Part shown: positions 1,396-59,589 of the stretch, in pieces
Numbering within the stretch: the stretch's first letter is position 1
Layout: each line of letters starts with the position of its first letter
The notes under the pieces: model-generated
Told to the model about the DNA's origin: nothing
Database searches by the model: none
The model's input: the letters and a program-made list of their open reading frames with translations, nothing else
IMG/VR virus record: IMGVR_UViG_3300020256_000002
Location: 1 to 64,000 of that record
Direction: 5' to 3' (one strand)
Length of the DNA stretch: 64,000 nucleotides
From: an uncultured virus (IMG/VR IMGVR_UViG_3300020256_000002)
Taxonomy: Duplodnaviria > Heunggongvirae > Uroviricota > Caudoviricetes
Program-made: the position numbers and the translations under genes

Positions 1396-1412
1396 ACTGA
1401 AGGAAATCAACT

Positions 1413-2402
1413 ATGAGTGATTCTAACAAAAGCACTATCCGTCTTTACGGTTGTGGTGGCTGCGGTATCAACATCGTATCCCCATTCGCCAACAAATCAT
1501 CTGGTCGCGGTTACTCCGACATTGAAGTGGGTCTGATTGACTCCTCAACGTCTAACTATACCGCTGAGCACAAAGAGAATGACGTTCCGTTCTTCTTAGC
1601 TACAGATGAAGGTGAGGGTTCGGGTAAAGTTCGCCGTGACAACGCTGCGGTAATTAACGAAAACATTCGTGCGGCATTGCAGAAACAACCACCTGCTGGT
1701 TTCAACATTGTTGTCTTCTCTACCTCTGGCGGTACGGGTTCTGTAGTAGGGCCTCTTCTGGTTAAAGAACTGTTGAAGCGTGGTATTCCTGCCATCGCTA
1801 TTGCAGTAGGTTCTTCTGAGTCATCTATCACTGCACTAAACAGTCTGAACACCCTGAAGTCTCTGGCGGCTATTGGTGACTCGTTGGATAAACCAACTAT
1901 CATCAGTTACCACCACAACAGTGCAACTACTCGACGTAGTCAGGTAGACGCAACTTGTAATGCAACAATCCAAGCCATGGCTGCTCTGTGTTCACAGCAG
2001 AACGATGAGCTTGACCAACGTGATGTCCGTAACTGGGCTTTCTATAATCACTCAACTTCAGTACCGGCTCAACTGTCAGTACTTGAGATTTGTGATTCGG
2101 TGGAAGTAGCAAAGCAAATCGACGCACCTATCTCAGTGGCGACGCTACTGGTTGATAAAGATGCACCGGCTCCTGAACTGATGCCTGAATACTCTTGTAT
2201 TGGTTATCGTTTGGATGGTCTGGAAGATGGGCTGACTGAACTACACTACATCATCTCGGTAGATGGTATTGCTGATTTAATCAAATACCGCCAAGAAGAA
2301 GTAGACAATTACAGTCGTGCTACTGAATCGCGCAACGTTAATACACGTAGAGTATTGTCGGGCACCGACCAAATCGATGCAGACACTGACTTGATTTTAT
2401 AA
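1413..2402 (+). CDS. phuZ: PhuZ phage tubulin
   Basis: GCGGCG, GSGK and the tubulin signature SGGTGS; LDQRD T7-like loop; 329 aa with an acidic/hydrophobic C-tail; jumbo-phage context. Confidence 0.93.
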   Translation: MSDSNKSTIRLYGCGGCGINIVSPFANKSSGRGYSDIEVGLIDSSTSNYTAEHKENDVPFFLATDEGEGSGKVRRDNAAVINENIRAALQKQPPAGFNIVVFSTSGGTGSVVGPLLVKELLKRGIPAIAIAVGSSESSITALNSLNTLKSLAAIGDSLDKPTIISYHHNSATTRRSQVDATCNATIQAMAALCSQQNDELDQRDVRNWAFYNHSTSVPAQLSVLEICDSVEVAKQIDAPISVATLLVDKDAPAPELMPEYSCIGYRLDGLEDGLTELHYIISVDGIADLIKYRQEEVDNYSRATESRNVNTRRVLSGTDQIDADTDLIL

Positions 2403-2429
2403 AAGTTAAGTTAAAAATACCTATAGTAT

Positions 2430-2939
2430 GTAGACGGGTGTACTTTTAAGGTTCTCGTCGGCGTTGCTGTGGTTACCCCGGCGGGGACGCAGCTGATTCT
2501 CTGGTGTGGGAGTTTTTCAATTTCGCCTTACACCATGACTCTGAGCCGTGCGCTGACGGCAGAGGCACACTTCACCAACGACGAAAGTGCCCATGTAAGC
2601 TAGCGGTACCCTGCCGGGGTTGAACCAGGCTGGAAAGAGTCGGGGGTTCCTTTAATTAGGAGCGCCCGCCTCGGACCAGTTCTAACGGTTTTTAAAAAAT
2701 TACAATCTGGCAAACACAAAGCTCCCTTAAATGGGAATTGGTTATAGTGGTCCACAAGGACTAACTGCTTCGAACGAGAGATGTCTTACATTACGCCCCA
2801 ATGGATTTGTAAGCATTACCTCTAGTAGGGTGATAAGAAAGTGCATAAGCGATAATTCCCCCGTGGTCAATATCCATTAGAACATTGACTAGAACATCTA
2901 AGTATGTGACGGCCGATGCCGTCGCTTATGCCGTCTTAC
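2430..2939 (+). ncRNA. Candidate large structured non-coding RNA (unassigned family)
   Basis: 594-nt gap with no ORF in the track; many stems (2475-2486/2609-2620, 2502-2510/2527-2535, 2630-2679, 2843-2852/2922-2931); possible end-to-end pairing 2430-2437/2931-2939; TATG at 2427-2430. Confidence 0.6.
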
Positions 2940-2953
2940 CTATTTTTTTATAA

Positions 2954-2972
2954 AGATATATTATCTTGGTGA
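2954..2972 (+). promoter_or_regulatory. Early-type phage promoter motif AGATATATTATCTTGGTGA
   Basis: Near-identical copies at 15445, 26886 and 31886; degenerate copies at 11582, 18218, 28492, 40669, 48549 and 49162, all upstream of + strand genes; resembles the phiKZ early motif TATATTAC. Confidence 0.7.
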
Positions 2973-2996
2973 AGTAAACAAATAAAAGGAAAGGTA

Positions 2997-3248
2997 ATGA
3001 AACTTATTATAGTTGTATCTGACGATATCGAGGTGGTGGGGAAATCTGAGAAGGGAGACTTCTTACAAACCAGAAAGCTCTGCGACCCAGAACACATCTA
3101 CATTGTGTTGGGAAGCGGGGACATGCCCGAAGGGATAATTGCCCATCTGAATAAAGTATATGGGACACTCCAAGTAGCTACTACGTTTACAGCAACGTTA
3201 CCGGTGTTTACCCCTGACGATAAGGTATACGTCCACACAACGGACTAG
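2997..3248 (+). CDS. Hypothetical protein
   Basis: 83-aa ORF with AATAAAAGGA RBS, downstream of the early motif. Confidence 0.6.
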   Translation: MKLIIVVSDDIEVVGKSEKGDFLQTRKLCDPEHIYIVLGSGDMPEGIIAHLNKVYGTLQVATTFTATLPVFTPDDKVYVHTTD

Positions 3249-3356
3249 CCCCTTTAAATCTTTCCAGAGAAGCACGTAGAGGGTAGATTAAACATTAAAT
3301 AGTACTACCGTATCCCCAGTATATCCTAATTGATTACAGCGGTATACAGGCCGTAT

Positions 3357-3385
3357 AAAATTTACATAGAATGCTTTTAGTATAG
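3357..3385 (+). promoter_or_regulatory. Middle-type promoter AAAATTTAC-N15-TATAG
   Basis: Same TAC-N15-TAT(AG/GT) spacing at nine intergenic sites in the window. Confidence 0.7.
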
Positions 3386-3426
3386 GGGGAGGAATCTATA
3401 TCCTCTATATAAACGGGAGAGGCAAA

Positions 3427-3801
3427 ATGAGTAAGAGACAACGTCTTGTTATCTTAGATGCCGGATGGGAAATAAGAGCAGTCACTACCTATGTAAAAGA
3501 GATACTAACGGAGTACCCAGAGTATCAACATTTACAGGATAATATTGTAGAGCTTATCATCCACCAACGTCTAAGAGAATTCTCGCTGATGTTTGCTGCA
3601 CACTTACCACAACACAATTCACGTGCACCCATCCCTGATAGTCTATACCGTTACCTACATTCTGTACCAACGGAACTGACAGGACGTGTAGACAAAGAAC
3701 TGTATAAACGGGAGCGTCACATGCGAACTTTACTTGGTGAAGTGCAAGTGGCAAACATTAAAATAAAAATACGCGAGTCATTATTGGAGATAACATGTTG
3801 A
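3427..3801 (+). CDS. Hypothetical protein (small-paralog array member)
   Basis: 124-aa ORF with GGAGAGG RBS; first gene of a tightly coupled operon. Confidence 0.7.
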   Translation: MSKRQRLVILDAGWEIRAVTTYVKEILTEYPEYQHLQDNIVELIIHQRLREFSLMFAAHLPQHNSRAPIPDSLYRYLHSVPTELTGRVDKELYKRERHMRTLLGEVQVANIKIKIRESLLEITC

Positions 3802-4322
3802 AGTTGAAATACCCAATCTACAAAATGGTGCGGGATTCTAAAGACGTTATCATGTCTGGTTGTTTTATACTGGACGGAACAACGTTGAAGAACTGTGCCA
3901 GGGCAAATTTTGCTGATGAGGGGTTTGAACTGCCTGAGTCGGAAGAAGGTCTTGAGACATTTATCGTCGATAGTTTCCAAGATGTAATTGCCAACAACGT
4001 GGAATACGATGCTGGTTCCAAATACGTCTCCATTCGTGTATTGGAAAAACTACACGGTAAGAAGTGGACAGGCGATTCGACATATGTCATGGACTACGCT
4101 GAAATGTTAATGACGAATATTTTTAAGCGTCATCCTTTTGGCATGTGGGACGTGTTCTTTAGAAATGGTGGTCTGTTTGTTATCTACCAAGGTAACTACG
4201 CGGAAGTATTGTATCGCTACATGAAACATACTAACTCGACAGAGATTCCATCTATTGAAAAGCTGGTAAGTTTCTCTATTACTGGTACAGTCCAAGAAGA
4301 CGGCATTTCAGATTTCAGGTAG
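3795..4322 (+). CDS. Hypothetical protein
   Basis: 175-aa ORF overlapping the previous stop; GGAG RBS. Confidence 0.7.
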   Translation: MLKLKYPIYKMVRDSKDVIMSGCFILDGTTLKNCARANFADEGFELPESEEGLETFIVDSFQDVIANNVEYDAGSKYVSIRVLEKLHGKKWTGDSTYVMDYAEMLMTNIFKRHPFGMWDVFFRNGGLFVIYQGNYAEVLYRYMKHTNSTEIPSIEKLVSFSITGTVQEDGISDFR

Positions 4323-7096: not shown

Positions 7097-7330
7097 ATGG
7101 ACAGGTTCGATGTACGAAGATACGGAAACAGAACGCAGTATATTTCTAAGTCGTATCCACATATATCGATAACGTTAAATGGGTTTGACCAACATGCACT
7201 GATTCGTGTCAAGCGCGATATTATGGTAGACATAGTGCTACTGATAAAGCGTAACCTGCGTATAACCCTCGCTGAAGAACTTGAGAGGTTATTACGTATG
7301 GGGCGTGGGGAGCAACATAGAGTTTATTAG
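7097..7330 (+). CDS. Hypothetical protein
   Basis: 77-aa ORF ending at a hairpin. Confidence 0.5.
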   Translation: MDRFDVRRYGNRTQYISKSYPHISITLNGFDQHALIRVKRDIMVDIVLLIKRNLRITLAEELERLLRMGRGEQHRVY

Positions 7331-7360
7331 GGAGGTACTTACCTCCCTAGTTATGCCGTT
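7328..7360 (+). terminator. Hairpin + TTATGCCGTT element (candidate non-canonical terminator)
   Basis: TAGGGAGGTA/TACCTCCCTA inverted repeat followed by TTATGCCGTT with no U-tract; the motif recurs about 14 times. Confidence 0.55.
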
Positions 7361-7378
7361 TAAATATAAAAGGAGAAA

Positions 7379-11226: not shown

Positions 11227-11290
11227 GTGTGTATCCTTGCAGGAGTAATTTAAGAGGAATCATAAATAAACTAAAAAGACGAGGTGAAAA

Positions 11291-11446
11291 ATGGATGAAG
11301 AAATAGAAGAAGCCATGAATCTCCTAAGGCGACGAGTACTCTGTAGAGAAAACTTGTCTCTGGCCGAGATTAAAGAACTCGCTGAATTGGGTGAGGAACT
11401 TAGCTACTGTATAAAGGAAAGTGTGGGAAACCTTGGGGAATCATAG
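11291..11446 (+). CDS. Small hypothetical protein (51 aa, below the ORF-track cutoff)
   Basis: GAGGTG RBS then ATG (MDEEIEEAMNLLRRR...), stop TAG. Confidence 0.45.
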   Translation: MDEEIEEAMNLLRRRVLCRENLSLAEIKELAELGEELSYCIKESVGNLGES

Positions 11447-11667
11447 CCTCAAATATTTTTTACACATCGTTCCTATATATATGTAGAGAAGCTGTGATGG
11501 CTTCCTAGGACAGTATGCCCTGTCCATCACAGCACTGTGTGCGTTTAATTTTAATCCCAAGTCGATTCAAAGGGTTTTCACATCTATATCATTCAGGTGC
11601 AATAACAGCAACGTTGCAAAGAAAACACTTTAAATAAATCGATTTAAAAACATGAAAGGAAATTGAT

Positions 11668-13563
11668 ATGTCAATTAAAGACAACAAGCAACAAAGCGGT
11701 CAAAGTGCAATGGAAGCTGCTTTCAAGAAAGCGGGTGAAACTGAGCAAGCTACTCAGAGCACTGAAGGTCGTGGCCCAGGTGGTCAACAAAAGGTACGTT
11801 CTGGCATCATCGGTGCTAACGCACGTATCCGTCGTTCAATCTCCCGTCAGGGTACTGGTAAGAACATTGCAGCTTACCAAGAAGCTTTCCAGGAAATCCT
11901 GAAGAAAGAAGGCGCTGACGAAATCAAATTCTTCGCCGTTGAGAAAGATGGTTACGGCTTACCATTCTCTCTGATTCTGGCGTGCTCTCAAATTGAGAAC
12001 ACCGTTGCAGTATCTACCCTGGTACTGGAAGAATCTGGCGAACCACTGGCACCGCGCCAAAATAACATCAACGGCACTAACGTTGAAGTTGAGCGTGTAC
12101 CTGGTGATATCCAATCTGACCGCCTGTGGGCAATTGTTCAGGAAGTACTGTCTGGTCACTTTGATGCAGGTGTTACTTTACATGAAGCCGGTTTGATTGT
12201 TATCCCTCGCGGCCTGAGCCACGAAGACGAGCCACGTCTGCACAATGTCGTATTCGACGTAAGCAACTCTAACATCGGTCTGCTTGACCGTGTACTGGGT
12301 GGCATCGAAGAGAAGTACACTGTTGCACTGTGGGACCCGCAGAACGAAACCGTATCTGCCCGTCTGGACTTCATGGCTACTAGCACTGAAACTGGTGTTG
12401 GCGAAATCGTACGTAGCGACATTCAAGTTGCTATGAAAGCTACCTCTAACCAAGGTGGTCACGATGAAGGCTGGGGTCAGCAACAGCTGATGATTTCTGA
12501 AGTAACTGGTTACATGGACCTTATCTACGTAGCGCCGCCTTCGCAGCAAAACGTATTTGGTCAGCCTATGGGTCAACCACAACAGCAAGGTCCTTGGGGA
12601 CAACAAGCTGCACCGGCGACTCAATGTTACCTGCCTCGTTTCATCATGACTGGTATCACTCACGGTCTGGACTCAGTAAGCCTGGAACTTCAACTGCAAG
12701 GCCTGGCATCAGCTGCGGTACTTGATGAAGACCACAACTGGGCTCGTGCGTTCCTGCCTAACTACAACATCAAAGGTACTGACATGCACGATATCGGTGC
12801 TGTTAAGTACGAGTGTCCAGCACTGGCGGATGTGGAAGTTGATACTAAATCAGCAGACTTCACTCCTCAGACTCTGCTTCAATTGCTTGGCGTAGCAGTA
12901 CACCCTAACATGGTATACTCTATGGATATCGCAGAAGCCGGTCCAATGAGCTGGGTACAGCACATCTTCATCGATGCTGCCTGTGGTAACCCTAAAGCGA
13001 TTGAAGCAATCGTGAATGCAGCGGACACGCTGACTAACGGTAACTTCAGCAACATGTTTAAAGGTAAGCAGTTGTTTACTGGCGACGTAACCCGTATCCA
13101 CAACGGTTACTACGTTGACGCAGAAGGCAACAAGAAAGACCTGCGCGAAATCGACTACTTGGCAATGCTGAACCTGCAAGGCGGAAGCGACCTGCAAGTA
13201 GTTACTGATTACGTGGATACGTTCACTGCAACTAACGTTCCAGAAGACTTCCGCTTACAGCGTCGTCTGAACATCCTGCGTGGTCTGCTGGGCGAAGGCT
13301 CAGTATTCGTATCTGGTTACTCTCGTCGTGTGGACTTCACTTCAGACTTCATCATGACTCTGGCAGCAGCTTGTGCAGCAGCCGGTGCAAATGTACGTCC
13401 AGAAGGTATCTACCAAGACATGACTACCGGTACTCGTCCTGCAACTAACTACCAGCGCTTTGCCTCTCAAGGTAACCAGCACTCTGGTATGTTCAACCAG
13501 CAGAACCAGTTCGGCGGTCGTGGTAACCAATACCAAAACATGAACGCACGTACCACCTGGTAA
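11668..13563 (+). CDS. chmA: Chimallin, phage nuclear shell protein
   Basis: 631 aa; codon usage typical of a highly expressed gene; Q/G-rich loop and tail; lies between the polymerase and nvRNAP beta' genes, the chimallin position in phiKZ-like phages. Confidence 0.85.
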   Translation: MSIKDNKQQSGQSAMEAAFKKAGETEQATQSTEGRGPGGQQKVRSGIIGANARIRRSISRQGTGKNIAAYQEAFQEILKKEGADEIKFFAVEKDGYGLPFSLILACSQIENTVAVSTLVLEESGEPLAPRQNNINGTNVEVERVPGDIQSDRLWAIVQEVLSGHFDAGVTLHEAGLIVIPRGLSHEDEPRLHNVVFDVSNSNIGLLDRVLGGIEEKYTVALWDPQNETVSARLDFMATSTETGVGEIVRSDIQVAMKATSNQGGHDEGWGQQQLMISEVTGYMDLIYVAPPSQQNVFGQPMGQPQQQGPWGQQAAPATQCYLPRFIMTGITHGLDSVSLELQLQGLASAAVLDEDHNWARAFLPNYNIKGTDMHDIGAVKYECPALADVEVDTKSADFTPQTLLQLLGVAVHPNMVYSMDIAEAGPMSWVQHIFIDAACGNPKAIEAIVNAADTLTNGNFSNMFKGKQLFTGDVTRIHNGYYVDAEGNKKDLREIDYLAMLNLQGGSDLQVVTDYVDTFTATNVPEDFRLQRRLNILRGLLGEGSVFVSGYSRRVDFTSDFIMTLAAACAAAGANVRPEGIYQDMTTGTRPATNYQRFASQGNQHSGMFNQQNQFGGRGNQYQNMNARTTW

Positions 13564-31410: not shown

Positions 31411-31479
31411 TCTAGACGGCATAAAACACTGAGAAACCTAAGGTTTCCCAGCATTTACGGTGAAAAAATACTCAGCCAT

Positions 31480-48309: not shown

Positions 48310-48353
48310 GCGGCATAAACGAGGGAGGGGCGAAAGCTCCTCCCTTATGTCGT

Positions 48354-49034: not shown

Positions 49035-49059
49035 TTGCCTGTTTTTTAGGCAATAGTAT

Positions 49060-49140
49060 GTAGGGTGTGTTTCTCTCTGGAACCTACGAAGACTGTCCAA
49101 ATGTGGATATCAGAAGGGGCCTAGTGCCCCTTCTTTTTTT
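49060..49140 (+). ncRNA. Candidate ~80-nt small RNA
   Basis: TAGTATGTAG start context identical to 2424-2433; three hairpins, the last a U-tract terminator; no ORF. Confidence 0.4.
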
Positions 49141-51134: not shown

Positions 51135-51194
51135 CTAAATTCGACAGGGGCAGTTGTCCCTGTCTATGCCGTCGTAAATAAAAGGAAAGACGAA

Positions 51195-51590: not shown

Positions 51591-51639
51591 CCATACGGCA
51601 TAAGCGGGGCATTGCGCCCCGACTTATTTTTTTTTTGCT

Positions 51640-55404: not shown

Positions 55405-56642
55405 TGTTGGAATTTCTTGAAGAACTCGAAAGCTTAGAAGCTGAAGTCTCTCAAGAAGCCGCATTACTTATTGATGCACAGTCGGACATGTTCAGCGCCA
55501 TGCAAATGGTTAAAGAACACAATGCAATAGACCGTGAAAATGCGATGGCCATTCTTCGGAATGTGCCGTCGTGTGAATCAATAAACCCTAACGAGTTTAC
55601 GTTATTCCCTACAACCACTAAGATGTCTGTTGCCATTGAAGGGTTCTGGGAAGGTATTGCGAGCGGACTAGAGAAACTATTCGGCCTCATGTTCTCGCTT
55701 ATCTTTGGCGTCTTGAAGTTATTGGTTAAACCAATTGAATGGTTGGTAGGTGGCGGTAAAGGCGATGGTGCCAACGCTACCGCAATCGATACACTGGACA
55801 AGCTTGAGAAAAGTGACAAACCTGAAAAGATAGAAGATGCGGACCGGGAAGTTCTTGATGAAACGGTAGACGAAGTTATTGACAAGAAAAAGCTCAACGA
55901 GTTTGAGTTTAAATCCATTGCCAATGCTAACGTCGACATGTACAAGGACATCAACGATTACATTCGCAGGCTCTATACGGTTATGTGGAAATCAACCAGA
56001 CGCTTCATTGAAGCCCATGGTAAGATTGAAGGCGGGGATGCATTCTATCGTCTACATAAAGACTTGGATGCTATCAGTGTAGAAGCAGGAAAGGAAATAG
56101 CAGCAATTGCTGGGGATTTCTTGAAAGACCAAGCCAAGGTACTTGACCTAGGTTCTGTGTCATATGGCAACCTGACAGAAGCAACTGACGCCTTTGAAAG
56201 ATTAACCACACGTGTACGGGAGTTAGAAGGTCGTGAGGTTGACCCTAAACTGGTAAAACAGCATTACCGGAATAAGGTTAACAAACTCCGTAGTTATATC
56301 AATCAGTTACATTCGGATATGAATTTCGATAAGAGTGACCGTGAGTTACTCAAAGAAACTGATAACTACACCAGTCAGTTCAATACTTTGCAAGACAAAC
56401 TTGAGCAGATGGAGAGTCGCGACAAGGCTGACTCTAGCTTGACCTCAGATGATATCAATGCAGTTCGAGACACAGTAAATAACCAGCTTACGTTAATTCG
56501 TGCGGCCAATGCTTTTGTCAAGAATATGTTTATGGTTTCCATCAAAGGGAAGCGTGGGTTCTTTAAAGGTATTAAAATTACCGATGAACTTACCGAAGCA
56601 GCGTTTGCTAAAATCAGACGCATGACCGGCAAAGCGAAATAA
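55404..56642 (+). CDS. Probable internal head protein
   Basis: Acidic propeptide with SLE/AIE sites followed by an amphipathic FWE...LFG segment. Confidence 0.6.
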   Translation: MLEFLEELESLEAEVSQEAALLIDAQSDMFSAMQMVKEHNAIDRENAMAILRNVPSCESINPNEFTLFPTTTKMSVAIEGFWEGIASGLEKLFGLMFSLIFGVLKLLVKPIEWLVGGGKGDGANATAIDTLDKLEKSDKPEKIEDADREVLDETVDEVIDKKKLNEFEFKSIANANVDMYKDINDYIRRLYTVMWKSTRRFIEAHGKIEGGDAFYRLHKDLDAISVEAGKEIAAIAGDFLKDQAKVLDLGSVSYGNLTEATDAFERLTTRVRELEGREVDPKLVKQHYRNKVNKLRSYINQLHSDMNFDKSDRELLKETDNYTSQFNTLQDKLEQMESRDKADSSLTSDDINAVRDTVNNQLTLIRAANAFVKNMFMVSIKGKRGFFKGIKITDELTEAAFAKIRRMTGKAK

Positions 56643-56679
56643 GACAGGGGAGTCCTAGTGGACTCCCCCTTATGCCGTC

Positions 56680-59589
56680 TTAGTCTGTATGTCTAATGAA
56701 TTTAATGTCCAAATCATCGACCAGTGCAATGGCACCATCCGGTTGACGCTCTAAGACTTTAGCTAGGCTACAACCTACTGAGTCGTTGTCCACTACAAAT
56801 GCATCCAATGTAGAGTCATCGTTGAACGAGTGCACCTTAATGGTCACCACGTCATCACTGACAACTTTACGGAGCTTATCGTGAATAGAACCCGTTGAGA
56901 TTTTAGACTTAGCCAATTCATTAATGACCACCTCTTTTACCGAAGCGTTGAGGCTCTTACGAATTGCAGCGTTTGAGTACGCATTAAAGCTAACGTACAA
57001 ATCAACACGAACACTAATGCCAGCACTGATTTGTTTTGGCTCACCTTGTACTGAGTACACGGTAATGGTCCCACTGTTTGCTTTAGGTGAGAACATCAGG
57101 TCAGTACGAGCCAGAAGCTTACCACTGATGTCACCAATGTCTGTTTGTACCCAATCTACAATACTTTCAGCCACAGTACGAACGTATGCATTAGTTCCTG
57201 TTTCTGTAGAGTAACGATAACGACCATCAAACAGAATTTGTTCAATGAAGTACGTCTCACTGCTCCCACCAACAGGAATACGTTCACCGTGCTCGTCCAG
57301 CTTGTAATCCCCTTGGCGGAATTGGTAAACCGGTCCACCAGTTTCCGAATCCATGACAGGGTCACCTTTAGAGTGAAGTAAGATACCTTCAAACTGCCCA
57401 TCCACCTCAACTAACTTGATAAAGCCGGAATCGGGCTCACGTTCGTAAATGTCCTCACTGTAAAGCATTGGTACGTCACGGTCCCACACTTCGTAATTAG
57501 GCTCGTTAATCGATACCCGTGAACGGTTGATTAATCCATCCATGCTTTCGAACAAACGTAGGTTAGCCGTTTCATGCGTAATTACGATTGCGTCTTCAGC
57601 AGCAAATGGCGTACCCAGAAGGTTGTGTAGGTCGTCTCGCTTGTCGGTAGATAAACCAACGTCAGTTACGTAATGGATAAAGTCAAACTCCGTATCAGGC
57701 TCAATGGGGTAGAGTAAAGTATCATCAATCACCGCATTGAAGTTAGTGGCAAAGAGTTTGTGACCTTTGTGGATTTCAAACTTCGTGTTGATGGGGAAAC
57801 GGAATATTAAGTTACCGTCTACATCACGACCGTAGTTGACACCCTCCACGTAAGTACGTTGCTCCTGACCACCCGGACGGAACGCTAACTGCAAACCAAC
57901 TTTAGACGGATGCAGTTTTTCATGTCCTACCGAACCTTTTACGGTTACTGCTAATTCATAGCCATCGAATGTACGGTATAGCGACATTGCACTTAAGGTA
58001 GCTTTATAATCCACTTTACTGTTAGCTGCACCGAAGTAACGATTGTTCACCGTTGGGTTATCGATGTAGTAGTTGTTGTAACTAAAGACATCGTCGTTAG
58101 TGTCTAAAACGGTAAGGTACGGACTGAAGAAATAACTTTCTTGTTCCAGTAAAGAGATTAGCACATCGCCACTTGCCTGCTCCAACGCTTCCCGCTCAAG
58201 GTCACTCACAAAACTGATACCCACACCATTTCGTTTATACAACGTGTTAGGCATGATGCTCCAAATCTTGTTAGCGTAGTAGGCAGTCGACAACGTCTGT
58301 AAAAGCTCTGACCAGACCTTTATTGACTCAACAGTAGTGCCAATGGGGCTAGAGCTTAAACCACGCTCAGGAGCCGGTACAGTGCGAGATGCGAGGAATG
58401 TACGGTCAGTTATGTTATCCACCACGCTCAGTACATCATAACCACGGTCTTTCAGCGTATTGGTCAAGTCAAATTCAGTGACCGGTGCTGGTTTGTAAGT
58501 GGAGTTACGAACCGTACGGTCTTGCAACTCCTCAAACGACAGACCATTACTACCACCCTTAGTTACAGAACTACCGGCAATTGCCATTTGGGTAATCTGA
58601 GACAGAGGGGCAGTGTAGCGACCATTGTCCGTGTTGTTTAAATCTATCCACTTACTTTGGACGGCAGTATATGGGTACTCGCTGAGCGACAGCGAGATAT
58701 TACCTTTAGTGGTGTAGACATCAATGCGAACTTCTGCACCGATTAATCCCTTGTTGAAATAAATCTCAGGAATCTTAACACGCAACGTGCCGTCGGCCAG
58801 TTTCAATGTGGCCGTAGGGATACCATTGTCGTATACGCGACCAGAGTGAGTAGTAACCATCTCTTCCCAATCGCCACCAGTGTGGCGATGAAACACTCTG
58901 CAGTAATATAAGTAATCGCGAATGGTCTTAGTCGTACTAAAGCCACTTGCGCTTGACACGGTGGCTACGGACGATTCTACGCTATACTGCAAACCCGGCA
59001 CTTGGAACATTAACATCTCACTACCTTGGTGTCTGTGTAGACGGTAGTCGATAACGTTAGTCTCCAGTGCCATGAACGGTGACTGTTCACTTGTATCGTA
59101 AAGAATGCTAATCGATTCAGCCCCAGAGAAAATAATTTCAATGGGGTATACGAAACTGAAGTTTGCACCAGCCACGGTGACACGGGATTCACGTGGAATA
59201 ACTAACTTAGTGTTGTTAGTTCCCGGAACAGTCTTCGCAAGACTACGTAACTCCGCCACGTTAAATGCAAACGTGAAGAGGTCACGACTTGGACTACCCC
59301 ATACACCAACATATTCCAAATCGGAAATATGCCCATACAAGTCATCTTCGGTACTTACCAGTTTAGGATAAGTACGACGGGTTAGACTTTCACACTCACT
59401 GATGGAATCGGCTGCCATAACCGCTGCGGACTCTAGTAGTAGAGTAAAGGGGTTAGTGGGGTCAATGACATTCAGTGTACCCTTTGAAGCTTTATCAAGA
59501 AGCTTGTATACGGAACGTTGGACGGCGTTGGGATTTCGTCGGAACTTATCAAGGTCGTCCTGCAATTCACTAACTTGGATATTATCCAT
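56680..59589 (-). CDS. Baseplate wedge-like structural protein (phiKZ gp87-like)
   Basis: 969 aa; DPTNPF-LLLE, DLY-H-SD, YTTKG and GGSNG--FEEL motifs of T4 gp6/baseplate J-like proteins. Confidence 0.65.
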   Translation of the reverse strand: MDNIQVSELQDDLDKFRRNPNAVQRSVYKLLDKASKGTLNVIDPTNPFTLLLESAAVMAADSISECESLTRRTYPKLVSTEDDLYGHISDLEYVGVWGSPSRDLFTFAFNVAELRSLAKTVPGTNNTKLVIPRESRVTVAGANFSFVYPIEIIFSGAESISILYDTSEQSPFMALETNVIDYRLHRHQGSEMLMFQVPGLQYSVESSVATVSSASGFSTTKTIRDYLYYCRVFHRHTGGDWEEMVTTHSGRVYDNGIPTATLKLADGTLRVKIPEIYFNKGLIGAEVRIDVYTTKGNISLSLSEYPYTAVQSKWIDLNNTDNGRYTAPLSQITQMAIAGSSVTKGGSNGLSFEELQDRTVRNSTYKPAPVTEFDLTNTLKDRGYDVLSVVDNITDRTFLASRTVPAPERGLSSSPIGTTVESIKVWSELLQTLSTAYYANKIWSIMPNTLYKRNGVGISFVSDLEREALEQASGDVLISLLEQESYFFSPYLTVLDTNDDVFSYNNYYIDNPTVNNRYFGAANSKVDYKATLSAMSLYRTFDGYELAVTVKGSVGHEKLHPSKVGLQLAFRPGGQEQRTYVEGVNYGRDVDGNLIFRFPINTKFEIHKGHKLFATNFNAVIDDTLLYPIEPDTEFDFIHYVTDVGLSTDKRDDLHNLLGTPFAAEDAIVITHETANLRLFESMDGLINRSRVSINEPNYEVWDRDVPMLYSEDIYEREPDSGFIKLVEVDGQFEGILLHSKGDPVMDSETGGPVYQFRQGDYKLDEHGERIPVGGSSETYFIEQILFDGRYRYSTETGTNAYVRTVAESIVDWVQTDIGDISGKLLARTDLMFSPKANSGTITVYSVQGEPKQISAGISVRVDLYVSFNAYSNAAIRKSLNASVKEVVINELAKSKISTGSIHDKLRKVVSDDVVTIKVHSFNDDSTLDAFVVDNDSVGCSLAKVLERQPDGAIALVDDLDIKFIRHTD

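Follow-up and report, generated by a model that had tools for sequence, protein, structure and literature searches.

The stretch of DNA analyzed here, hereafter the window, comprises 64,000 nucleotides of an uncultured tailed phage and corresponds to positions 1-64,000 of the IMG/VR viral fragment IMGVR_UViG_3300020256_000002, which measures 73.5 kb and is ~27% complete; the same sequence is also contained in two 207-kb marine-metagenome contigs (L002 and L015). Directly downstream of its phuZ gene lies a long interval without open reading frames (ORFs) which very probably harbors a genuine gene for a structured non-coding RNA that is conserved in its own right. In jumbo phages that form a nucleus, transcription is kept apart from translation, and knowledge of their RNA biology hardly extends beyond mRNAs. 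A first-pass annotation, made from the letters of the window, had proposed a discrete phage-encoded structured RNA at 2430-2939, and it is the follow-up of that proposal that is reported here.

The phuZ locus of the window

PhuZ is encoded at 1413-2402 (phrog_4733, E 7e-85; Pfam Tubulin and TubZ_C_2) and the nuclear shell protein, chimallin, at 11668-13560 (phrog_4795, E 1.3e-94). Because both of these proteins and four split RNA polymerase (RNAP) beta-type subunits are encoded in the window, its source is a nucleus-forming jumbo phage, a chimallivirus. A tblastn search of cultured phages with PhuZ gave 182 hits, every one below 60% identity and the top one at 40% (Xanthomonas phage LucasX), and by this sequence measure the phage is distant from cultured phages.

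With ORFs called greedily at a minimum of 70 amino acids, the interval between phuZ and an 83-amino-acid ORF (2403-2996, 594 nt) is the largest ORF-free gap of the window, as had been claimed for the region; the runner-up (11227-11667) measures 441 nt. The GC-richness attributed to the first half of the region was also found, as a modest rise to 0.535 in 2500-2699 compared with ~0.45 in the flanks.

Conservation and coding potential

Relatives were found by PhuZ-guided scans. In L003, L014 and L004, whose PhuZ proteins are 80, 79 and 75% identical to that of the window, respectively, phuZ is directly followed by the same non-coding unit. L016 has the same sequence as L004, L014 and L003 share 77% nucleotide identity, and the core set consists of four distinct sequences (the window, L003, L004 and L014). 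At such divergence, long invariant stretches persist in the intergenic DNA: the head of the unit (CTATAGTATGTAGACG), the elements CGTTGCTGTGGT, TTCAATTTCGC and TACAATCTGG, 30 nt at 2746-2775, the motif CATWAGAAC and the tail, GACGGC-nnnn-GCCGTC-r-CTTATGCCGTCT (Table 1). The 30-nt block gave an exact degenerate-pattern match in 3 of 3 IMG/VR relatives.

The region is non-coding and contains no conserved frame. Each frame of each homologue has at least three stops, variable sites fall on the three positions modulo 3 as 98/89/85, with no codon periodicity, and most alignment gap lengths are not multiples of three. Small ORFs of 44, 39 and 49 amino acids within the gap are unconserved and were discarded.

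A more distant relative, L027 (PhuZ 58%), has a 590-nt gap after phuZ which opens with the same 13 nt of the promoter block (TATAGTATGTAGA). The counterpart there of P2, the long-range helix described below, is a perfect 14-bp helix of unrelated sequence (3561-3574/3681-3694) that starts at the same offset (+42) from the G of the TATG; CTTCAATTTT lies in the loop of the first hairpin that it encloses, and the unit, which ends with a hairpin and CTATGCCGC, folds with z = -4.47. Judging from synteny, the promoter block and the shared layout, L027 probably carries a shorter homologue of 369 nt. A scan with the PhuZ of L027 returned L027 itself as the sole match.

In L017, L028 and L029 (PhuZ 34-39%), phuZ is followed by a small ORF and then by a non-coding stretch of 200-550 nt ending in a hairpin and YTTATGCCGY, and homology of these stretches to the RNA or to each other could not be shown. 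The ORF that separates phuZ from the non-coding stretch in L029 (3494-3730) and L017 (3485-3694) is Cys-rich and zinc-ribbon-like (CxxC...CxxC); such an ORF after phuZ, seen in phages with PhuZ at 37-39%, is absent from the clade of the window. There is no gap after phuZ in L030, of the 34-39% group, or in the two closest cultured relatives (Xanthomonas phages, PhuZ 40%); the sequence of L018 stops too early to be scored.

Further searches added no members. A blastn search ('distant') of 2400-3000 against 50,697 cultured-phage records gave no match, and pattern scans of IMG/VR recovered known contigs plus three chance matches, two of which look coding (L019 and L023) and one of which lies in an AT-rich giant-virus bin (L034). 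A covariance model of the P2 domain built from the four core sequences matched only those same four, and its best match with filters off on L027, L029, L017 and L028 was meaningless (E 0.47). Two specific RNA patterns gave zero hits in 185,579 bacterial and archaeal genomes, and the RNA is therefore not an obvious copy of a host RNA.

Predicted structure and covariation

The unit is better described as two domains, a 5' domain of ~250 nt and a 3' domain. The long-range helix of the first-pass annotation was located as P2, in which ACCCCGGCGGGG (2475-2486) pairs with CCCTGCCGGGGT (2609-2620) and GGTT/AACC extends the helix outward. It comprises 16 pairs, with 98.4% of the aligned cells paired, and three of its pairs are changed on both sides and seven on one side. 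The three hairpins said to be enclosed by it (P3, P4 and P5) occur in both the minimum free energy (MFE) and the centroid fold, as does an interrupted hairpin (P6) that had been placed at 2630-2679. The stem of P3 covaries, three of its eight pairs being changed on both sides, and its loop is invariant in the four core sequences.

In the 3' domain, the perfect 10-bp stem that had been predicted is present as P9; its outer six pairs are retained in the relatives and, by eye, one inner pair, C-G in the window, is replaced by U-A in the remaining three sequences, which would add one compensatory pair to the count given below. All the helices named in the first-pass annotation were located at the coordinates that it gave. 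L014 alters the P8 block yet retains the hairpin (one pair changed on both sides, two on one side). As structure, however, the 3' half is weakly supported.

TABLE 1. Positions of the predicted elements of the RNA unit and of the terminator-like signature (window coordinates unless a relative is named).
Feature	Position	Strand	Conservation and remarks
Promoter block CTATAGTATGTAGACG (16 nt)	2415-2430	+	Invariant in 4/4 core sequences
TATG	2427-2430	+	Predicted transcription start at G2430
P1, 5' terminal hairpin	2430-2462	+	MFE and centroid; 3/4 pairs of one helix changed on both sides
P1-P2 linker CGTTGCTGTGGT	2462-2473	+	Invariant in 4/4 core sequences; L027 retains GCGTT there
P2, long-range helix	2470-2486/2609-2627	+	Closes multi-branch loop
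P3, hairpin	2502-2536	+	12-14-nt loop with invariant TTCAATTTCGC (2516-2526)
P4, short hairpin	2545-2560	+	2/5 pairs changed on both sides, 100% paired; conserved TTGAG precedes
P5, hairpin	2564-2591	+	3/4 pairs changed on both sides
P6, interrupted hairpin	2628-2681	+	4 pairs changed on both sides, 81-88% paired
A/U-rich single-stranded inter-domain linker	2682-2700	+	Unpaired in folds, poorly conserved
Block TACAATCTGG	2701-2710	+	Invariant in 4/4 core sequences
P7, small hairpin CCC-UUAAAU-GGG	2723-2736	+	Stem invariant, covariation uninformative
Block AGTGGTCCACAAGGACTAACTGCTTCGAAC (30 nt)	2746-2775	+	Best-conserved block; first 21 nt form hairpin P8
P9, closing helix of 3' domain	2843-2852/2922-2931	+	Perfect 10 bp in window
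Block CATTAGAAC	2875-2883	+	CATWAGAAC in 4/4 core sequences
Terminator signature	2908-2936	+	Hairpin GACGGC-CGAT-GCCGTC then GCTTATGCCGTCT; invariant in relatives
Hairpin + (Y)TTATGCCG(Y)	7330-7361, 51143-51174, 56643-56681	+	
Hairpin + (Y)TTATGCCG(Y)	31415-31450, 48310-48345, 51594-51630	-	
Hairpin + (Y)TTATGCCG(Y) in relatives	L027 3863-3888; L029 4053-4083; L028 4010-4042; L017 4189-4243		

Compensatory change was indeed observed among the homologues. RNAalifold predicted 99 pairs on the four core sequences. Standard pairs occupied 94.9% of the cells, compared with 89.2% in column shuffles, and 21 of the 99 pairs were changed on both sides, compared with 8.9 in the shuffles, neither value being reached in any of 500 shuffles. 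When the 3' partners were slid by one to three columns, pairing fell to 37-47% and only 0-6 two-sided pairs were found. The 5' domain holds 18 of the 21 compensatory pairs, spread over P1, P2, P3, P4, P5 and P6; the 3' half is conserved in sequence. In aligned pairs, G-U/U-G cells numbered 57 and A-C/C-A cells five, an excess which, as had been suggested from the wobble pairs of the window, favors an RNA on the + strand, in the same direction as the promoter, the terminator and the flanking genes.

The whole 510 nt gave z = -3.74 against dinucleotide shuffles on the + strand (-3.02 on the - strand), and the 5' half, divided from the 3' half at 2681/2682, gave z = -3.50, with none of 200 shuffles folding as well. 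As an energy control, the first 19 kb were sampled in 97 windows of 250 nt, most of them coding; among these the one at 2430 has by far the lowest absolute energy (-109 compared with -66 to -82 kcal/mol). The comparison with shuffles thus went the way of the first-pass annotation, whereas the comparison with many coding windows of the genome left the region unexceptional. Energy alone does not mark the region; covariation and expression do.

Two tertiary contacts that had been put forward were not supported. For a pseudoknot of TCGTCG with CGACGA, comparable pairing is seen by eye in two of the four sequences, and the 5' partner already forms the 3' strand of P1. In the proposed pairing of the two ends of the unit, the partners are invariant and carry no covariation information, the 3' partner belongs to a genome-wide motif, and the abundant RNA species described below seems to lack that partner. 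Other candidate elements were likewise set aside. A 5-bp bridge between the domains (UGCUG/UAGUA) is invariant, so covariation is uninformative, and a 10-nt complementarity of the P5 loop (2569-2578) to the downstream 5' untranslated region (UTR; 2966-2975) is, by eye, absent from L003 and was treated as chance. By eye in the four-sequence alignment, CsrA-type GGA repeats, Shine-Dalgarno or anti-Shine-Dalgarno mimicry in P6 and a T-loop in CUUCGAAC each occur in some sequences and are not conserved in others.

Expression in ocean RNA libraries

Among the runs listed, seven RNA-library runs from four studies contain part of 1400-3300, and four of these (X14, X17, X19 and X20) were compared, all as assembled contigs. 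In X14 the entire 6 kb is covered by 82 contigs, 65 of them at least 99% and 17 of them 95-99% identical to the window. Contig depth in this run, summed over the contigs present, amounts to 104,893 in 2401-2600 and 27,703 in 2601-2800, while the flanking contigs 634-2469 (phuZ and upstream) and 2664-3933 have depths of 384 and 1,298, respectively. In X17, a contig spanning 880-2868 has a mean depth of 15.4 and its neighbors 3.5-5.5. X19 and X20, from two other studies, yielded one contig each on the 6 kb (2440-2766 and 2467-2617, respectively); words from phuZ had an equal chance in that search, and the uncovered parts are no evidence of absence. In RNA, then, the region is covered with a very large local excess of contig depth.

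One X14 contig, among the eight of 82 listed, ends at 2678 and continues with 13 non-templated A residues. These residues place a 3' terminus of the RNA at the base of P6, the tail having been added in the cell or while the library was made. The abundant species is probably the ~250-nt 5' domain (~2430-2680); the 3' domain seems to be about as abundant as the genes downstream. The depth figures suggest strongly, short of proof, that the 5' domain is very highly abundant.

Predicted promoter and terminator

As described in the sections on late transcription of PMC4666361, late promoters of the phiKZ non-virion RNA polymerase carry a TATG whose G is +1. The unit studied here likewise begins with a TATG, which lies inside the invariant 16-nt block, and because the phiKZ motif has G as its start site we infer a transcription start at G2430, the very coordinate from which the first-pass annotation had begun its element. 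Polymerase and timing would then also be those of a phiKZ-type late unit.

At the other end, where the same annotation had closed the unit with a hairpin and a motif, a terminal hairpin (2908-2923) is followed by TTATGCCGTC at 2926-2935. Seven of nine TATGCCG sites in the window stand directly behind a GC-rich hairpin at gene 3' ends, on either strand, and one such combination sits between convergent genes ending at 56639 and 56683. The hairpin-plus-motif tail extends to phages whose PhuZ is merely 37-58% identical to that of the window. The combination of hairpin and TTATGCCG is probably a clade-specific terminator, or terminator-promoter, signal for phage polymerases. The signature itself includes a TATG. 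Taken together, 2430 to ~2936 would constitute a complete ORF-less transcription unit of ~506 nt with its own promoter and terminator motifs, both its start and its termination being predictions.

Relation to known RNA families

Rfam 15 (4,227 models), applied at gathering score to the whole 64-kb window, gave zero matches. Its models presumably include GOLLD, ROOL, tmRNA, RNase P, 6S, SRP, group I and II introns, and hammerhead and other self-cleaving ribozymes. At E <= 10, 2350-3050 yielded four chance-level hits (10.9-18.3 bits compared with thresholds of 39-111.6; E 2.2-7.9), and eight related loci (47,758 bases) gave no match at E <= 1. ARAGORN found no tRNA or tmRNA genes in the window. 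The first-pass annotation had found no match by eye to tRNA, tmRNA, RNase P, SRP or intron cores, and these searches agree with it. A self-cleaving ribozyme generating the end at 2678 was also considered and rejected, as no Rfam ribozyme matched and the core motifs CUGA and GAAA are, by eye, unconserved. A search of the literature on structured or non-coding RNAs of jumbo phages and Chimalliviridae, outside of which lay bioRxiv supplements and journals without a CC license, returned no description of this RNA.

Neighboring genes and further candidate RNAs

The first small ORF 3' of the RNA (2997-3248) differs from those of L003 (4554-4748) and L004 (4584-4742), and the next gene (3427-3801) is conserved in close relatives, as is the RNA. 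The small ORFs directly downstream of the unit do not align between relatives, and the spot after phuZ is, to judge from these sequences, a gene-turnover hot spot with the RNA as its constant feature. A conserved (C/G)ATATATTAT motif lies at 2955-2965, ~30-40 nt upstream of the genes after the RNA, and is present at the matching place in L003, L004, L014 and L027; we take it to resemble the A/T-rich early-promoter motif of phiKZ.

The promoter shape TATA-n-TATGTAG also heads two other short non-coding stretches of the window. At 49046-49140 (+), within a 205-nt gap, a promoter-like AATAGTATGTAGGG, shaped like that of the main RNA, stands ~75 nt ahead of a canonical terminator (GAAGGGGC-CTAGT-GCCCCTTC plus T8), and this stretch is a second candidate small RNA. 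At 11474-11545 (+), in the 441-nt gap upstream of the shell gene, CTATATATATGTAGAG precedes a nested hairpin (GCTGTGATGG...CCATCACAGC), which could belong to a structured leader on the chimallin mRNA or represent a further short RNA. That gap also carries a small + strand ORF (~11293-11445).

Discussion

The proposal of a phage-encoded structured RNA downstream of phuZ is supported by transcript contigs, by covariation and by the lack of a match to any known family. These three lines clearly favor it, and folding energy does so weakly. Taken as a whole, the explanation that we consider best, and towards which we lean by a small measure, is a stand-alone, protein-less unit made by a phage polymerase, processed, and acting in trans through protein binding. 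Transcription would start at the G of the conserved TATG, carried out by the phage non-virion RNA polymerase of the phiKZ type, and the transcript would span the 5' domain (P1, P2 closing a junction with P3-P5, and P6) and then the 3' domain, with termination at the hairpin and TTATGCCGTC signature. Cleavage in the A/U-rich linker at 2682-2700 could be followed by trimming back to the base of P6, and the nuclease-resistant 5' domain of ~250 nt, with the stable hairpins P1 and P6 at its ends, would accumulate to very high levels. Because the invariant single-stranded P3 loop (GUUUUUCAAUUUCGC) and P1-P2 linker (CGUUGCUGUGGU) sit on covarying stems, these elements could be the protein contacts. 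That the product is a stable protein-binding RNA acting in trans, as a ribonucleoprotein core or as a sponge for a host or phage factor, is a tentative suggestion drawn by analogy, to which, taken by itself, we give somewhat less than an even chance.

Several observations weigh against this account. The X17 contig at 880-2868 joins upstream genes to the RNA, so that read-through from phuZ is possible. Each contig contributes a single depth figure, the sums run over overlapping variant contigs, and such figures are unsafe for ranking; contigs moreover give no strand, start or end, and the poly(A) end was seen in one record. The folding of the 3' half does not exceed chance (z = -1.35, 23 of 200 shuffles as good), and that half contributes only three compensatory pairs out of 21, located in P8 and in a small hairpin; against a background mean z of -1.43 (sd 1.49) the window at 2430 ranks 11th of 97. 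One and the same alignment served both to predict the structure and to score it, so that the paired share and the margin over the slid controls are inflated, and related sequences can beat column shuffles without any structure. The homologues number only four to five, and the P2-domain model misses L027. The trans-acting role, finally, is a guess from analogy.

The alternative that survives best is that the element works in cis only, as a long 3' UTR of phuZ and/or a leader for the downstream early genes, with the 250-nt species as a nuclease-resistant, functionless remnant of decay or processing. It is known that well-folded fragments outlast the remainder of a transcript. The single X17 contig over 880-2868 would fit such a reading, as would the contig of the 3' half (2664-3933), which also carries downstream genes at the same depth (1,298), and in 201phi2-1 short RNAs derived from 5' UTRs are common, accounting for eight of the 11 small RNAs (sRNAs) in the part of PMC11512511 that deals with them. 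However, an invariant promoter block and a terminator signature belong to the unit itself, the genes downstream carry a different conserved motif, of the TATATTAT type, and vary between relatives while the RNA stays, and the invariant loop and linker on covarying stems point to selection on the RNA itself. We assign the cis-only explanation a minor share of the probability, and retain the stand-alone unit as the preferred reading.

The second alternative is an 'ornate' RNA of the GOLLD or ROOL kind, in which the full ~500-nt transcript would adopt a tertiary fold and be self-assembling or catalytic. Its length of ~506 nt, its multi-stem junction, its phage carrier, its high expression and its invariant loop and junction nucleotides could be read in this way, the more so as prophages often carry the large RNAs GOLLD and ROOL (in the portion of PMC5737381 that covers them). 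We nevertheless regard it as quite unlikely. No Rfam family matches, no pseudoknot is supported and the structure of the 3' half is weakly backed; what accumulates seems to be only half of the unit; and the window has no tRNA genes, while GOLLD and ROOL often lie near tRNAs (same portion of PMC5737381).

A third alternative is an antisense RNA that would use the invariant P3 loop to base-pair with an RNA of the host or the phage, such as the 5' end of host 16S rRNA, leading to interference with ribosomes or their capture. It arises from the loop octamer UUCAAUUU (= TTCAATTT, 2516-2523), which is perfectly complementary to nucleotides 1-8 of E. coli K-12 16S rRNA (rrsH). In the window, by eye, the flanking U run could even lengthen the pairing through G-U wobbles. 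A post-hoc 8-mer match is, however, expected by chance given many invariant 8-mers and many possible targets. The number of U residues before the octamer varies among homologues (5, 6 or 7, one with an A), which breaks the extended register, and sites complementary to TTCAATTTCGC with at most one mismatch are not enriched in the window (2 compared with 1.43 expected). The octamer complementarity is probably a chance match, and an antisense function appears highly improbable.

Least credible of all is a DNA element, such as a replication origin or a tubC-like centromere for the tubulin, for although the interval adjoins a TubZ-family gene and type III partition systems place the centromere beside the tubulin operon (tubC for TubZ/TubR), it has no iterated direct repeats or arrays (two 2-copy families at 73-85% identity only), keeps its pairs through G-U (57 compared with 5), which is meaningless in duplex DNA, and shows a large RNA-specific excess of depth.

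A more ambitious reading of the structured RNA, which we find doubtful, would make it the founding member of a new large structured RNA class of nucleus-forming jumbo phages, made by the phage's own polymerase in the phage nucleus, ranking among the most abundant phage transcripts of the surface ocean and serving as a particle core, self-assembling or catalytic. If this were true, the RNA could be needed for cell takeover, for example through the capture of a host RNA-processing or translation factor. Irrespective of its role, a precisely bounded and covarying RNA is a concrete target for synthesis, probing and a search for partners. For an uncultured phage it is unusual to have evidence, from the environmental RNA of independent studies, that an RNA is very highly expressed, and the case shows that stable phage RNAs can be sought in ocean metatranscriptomes. 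Within this marine phage clade, the terminator signature and the promoter block offer a means of annotating transcription units.

Among known systems, phiKZ itself expresses non-coding RNAs of unknown role, as stated in the part of a 2026 review that concerns them (PMC13282480). The sRNAs of phiKZ and 201phi2-1 detected by ONT-cappable-seq are close in kind: in the sections of PMC11512511 devoted to them, they are chimallivirus non-coding transcripts with phage promoters and terminators, some of which hold their position relative to a conserved gene across genera. Those sRNAs were filtered to less than 250 bp and are mostly derived from 5' UTRs (same sections), whereas the unit here measures ~500 nt, stands alone between two genes and has a branched, covarying fold. 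With phiKZ late units (PMC4666361, in its treatment of late promoters) it shares a TATG after A/T-rich sequence at the head of the unit and a phage that encodes split multisubunit RNAPs; that treatment describes no conservation downstream of the phiKZ TATG, unlike the 16-nt block (CTATAGTATGTAGACG) conserved here. GOLLD and ROOL, as portrayed in part of PMC5737381, are similarly ~500 nt, multi-junction and phage-borne, with few but strictly conserved nucleotides. The present RNA differs from them in lacking an Rfam match, tRNA neighbors and supported pseudoknots, in its strictly marine, uncultured, nucleus-forming jumbo phage carrier and in that seemingly only its 5' half accumulates.

The IMES RNAs (Weinberg et al. 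2009) are reportedly highly expressed orphan RNAs of marine metatranscriptomes and, like the RNA described here, are said to be found in marine environmental sequence alone and to stand out in RNA libraries by their abundance. Here, in contrast, the carrier is known, a phage that encodes PhuZ and chimallin, and no family matches in Rfam, which presumably includes the IMES motifs. In summary, this RNA is a new family within a known kind, that of orphan phage structured RNAs and phiKZ-like short RNAs, within which it stands out because it is large, because its gene anatomy is clean and because it appears to be extremely abundant in ocean metatranscriptomes.

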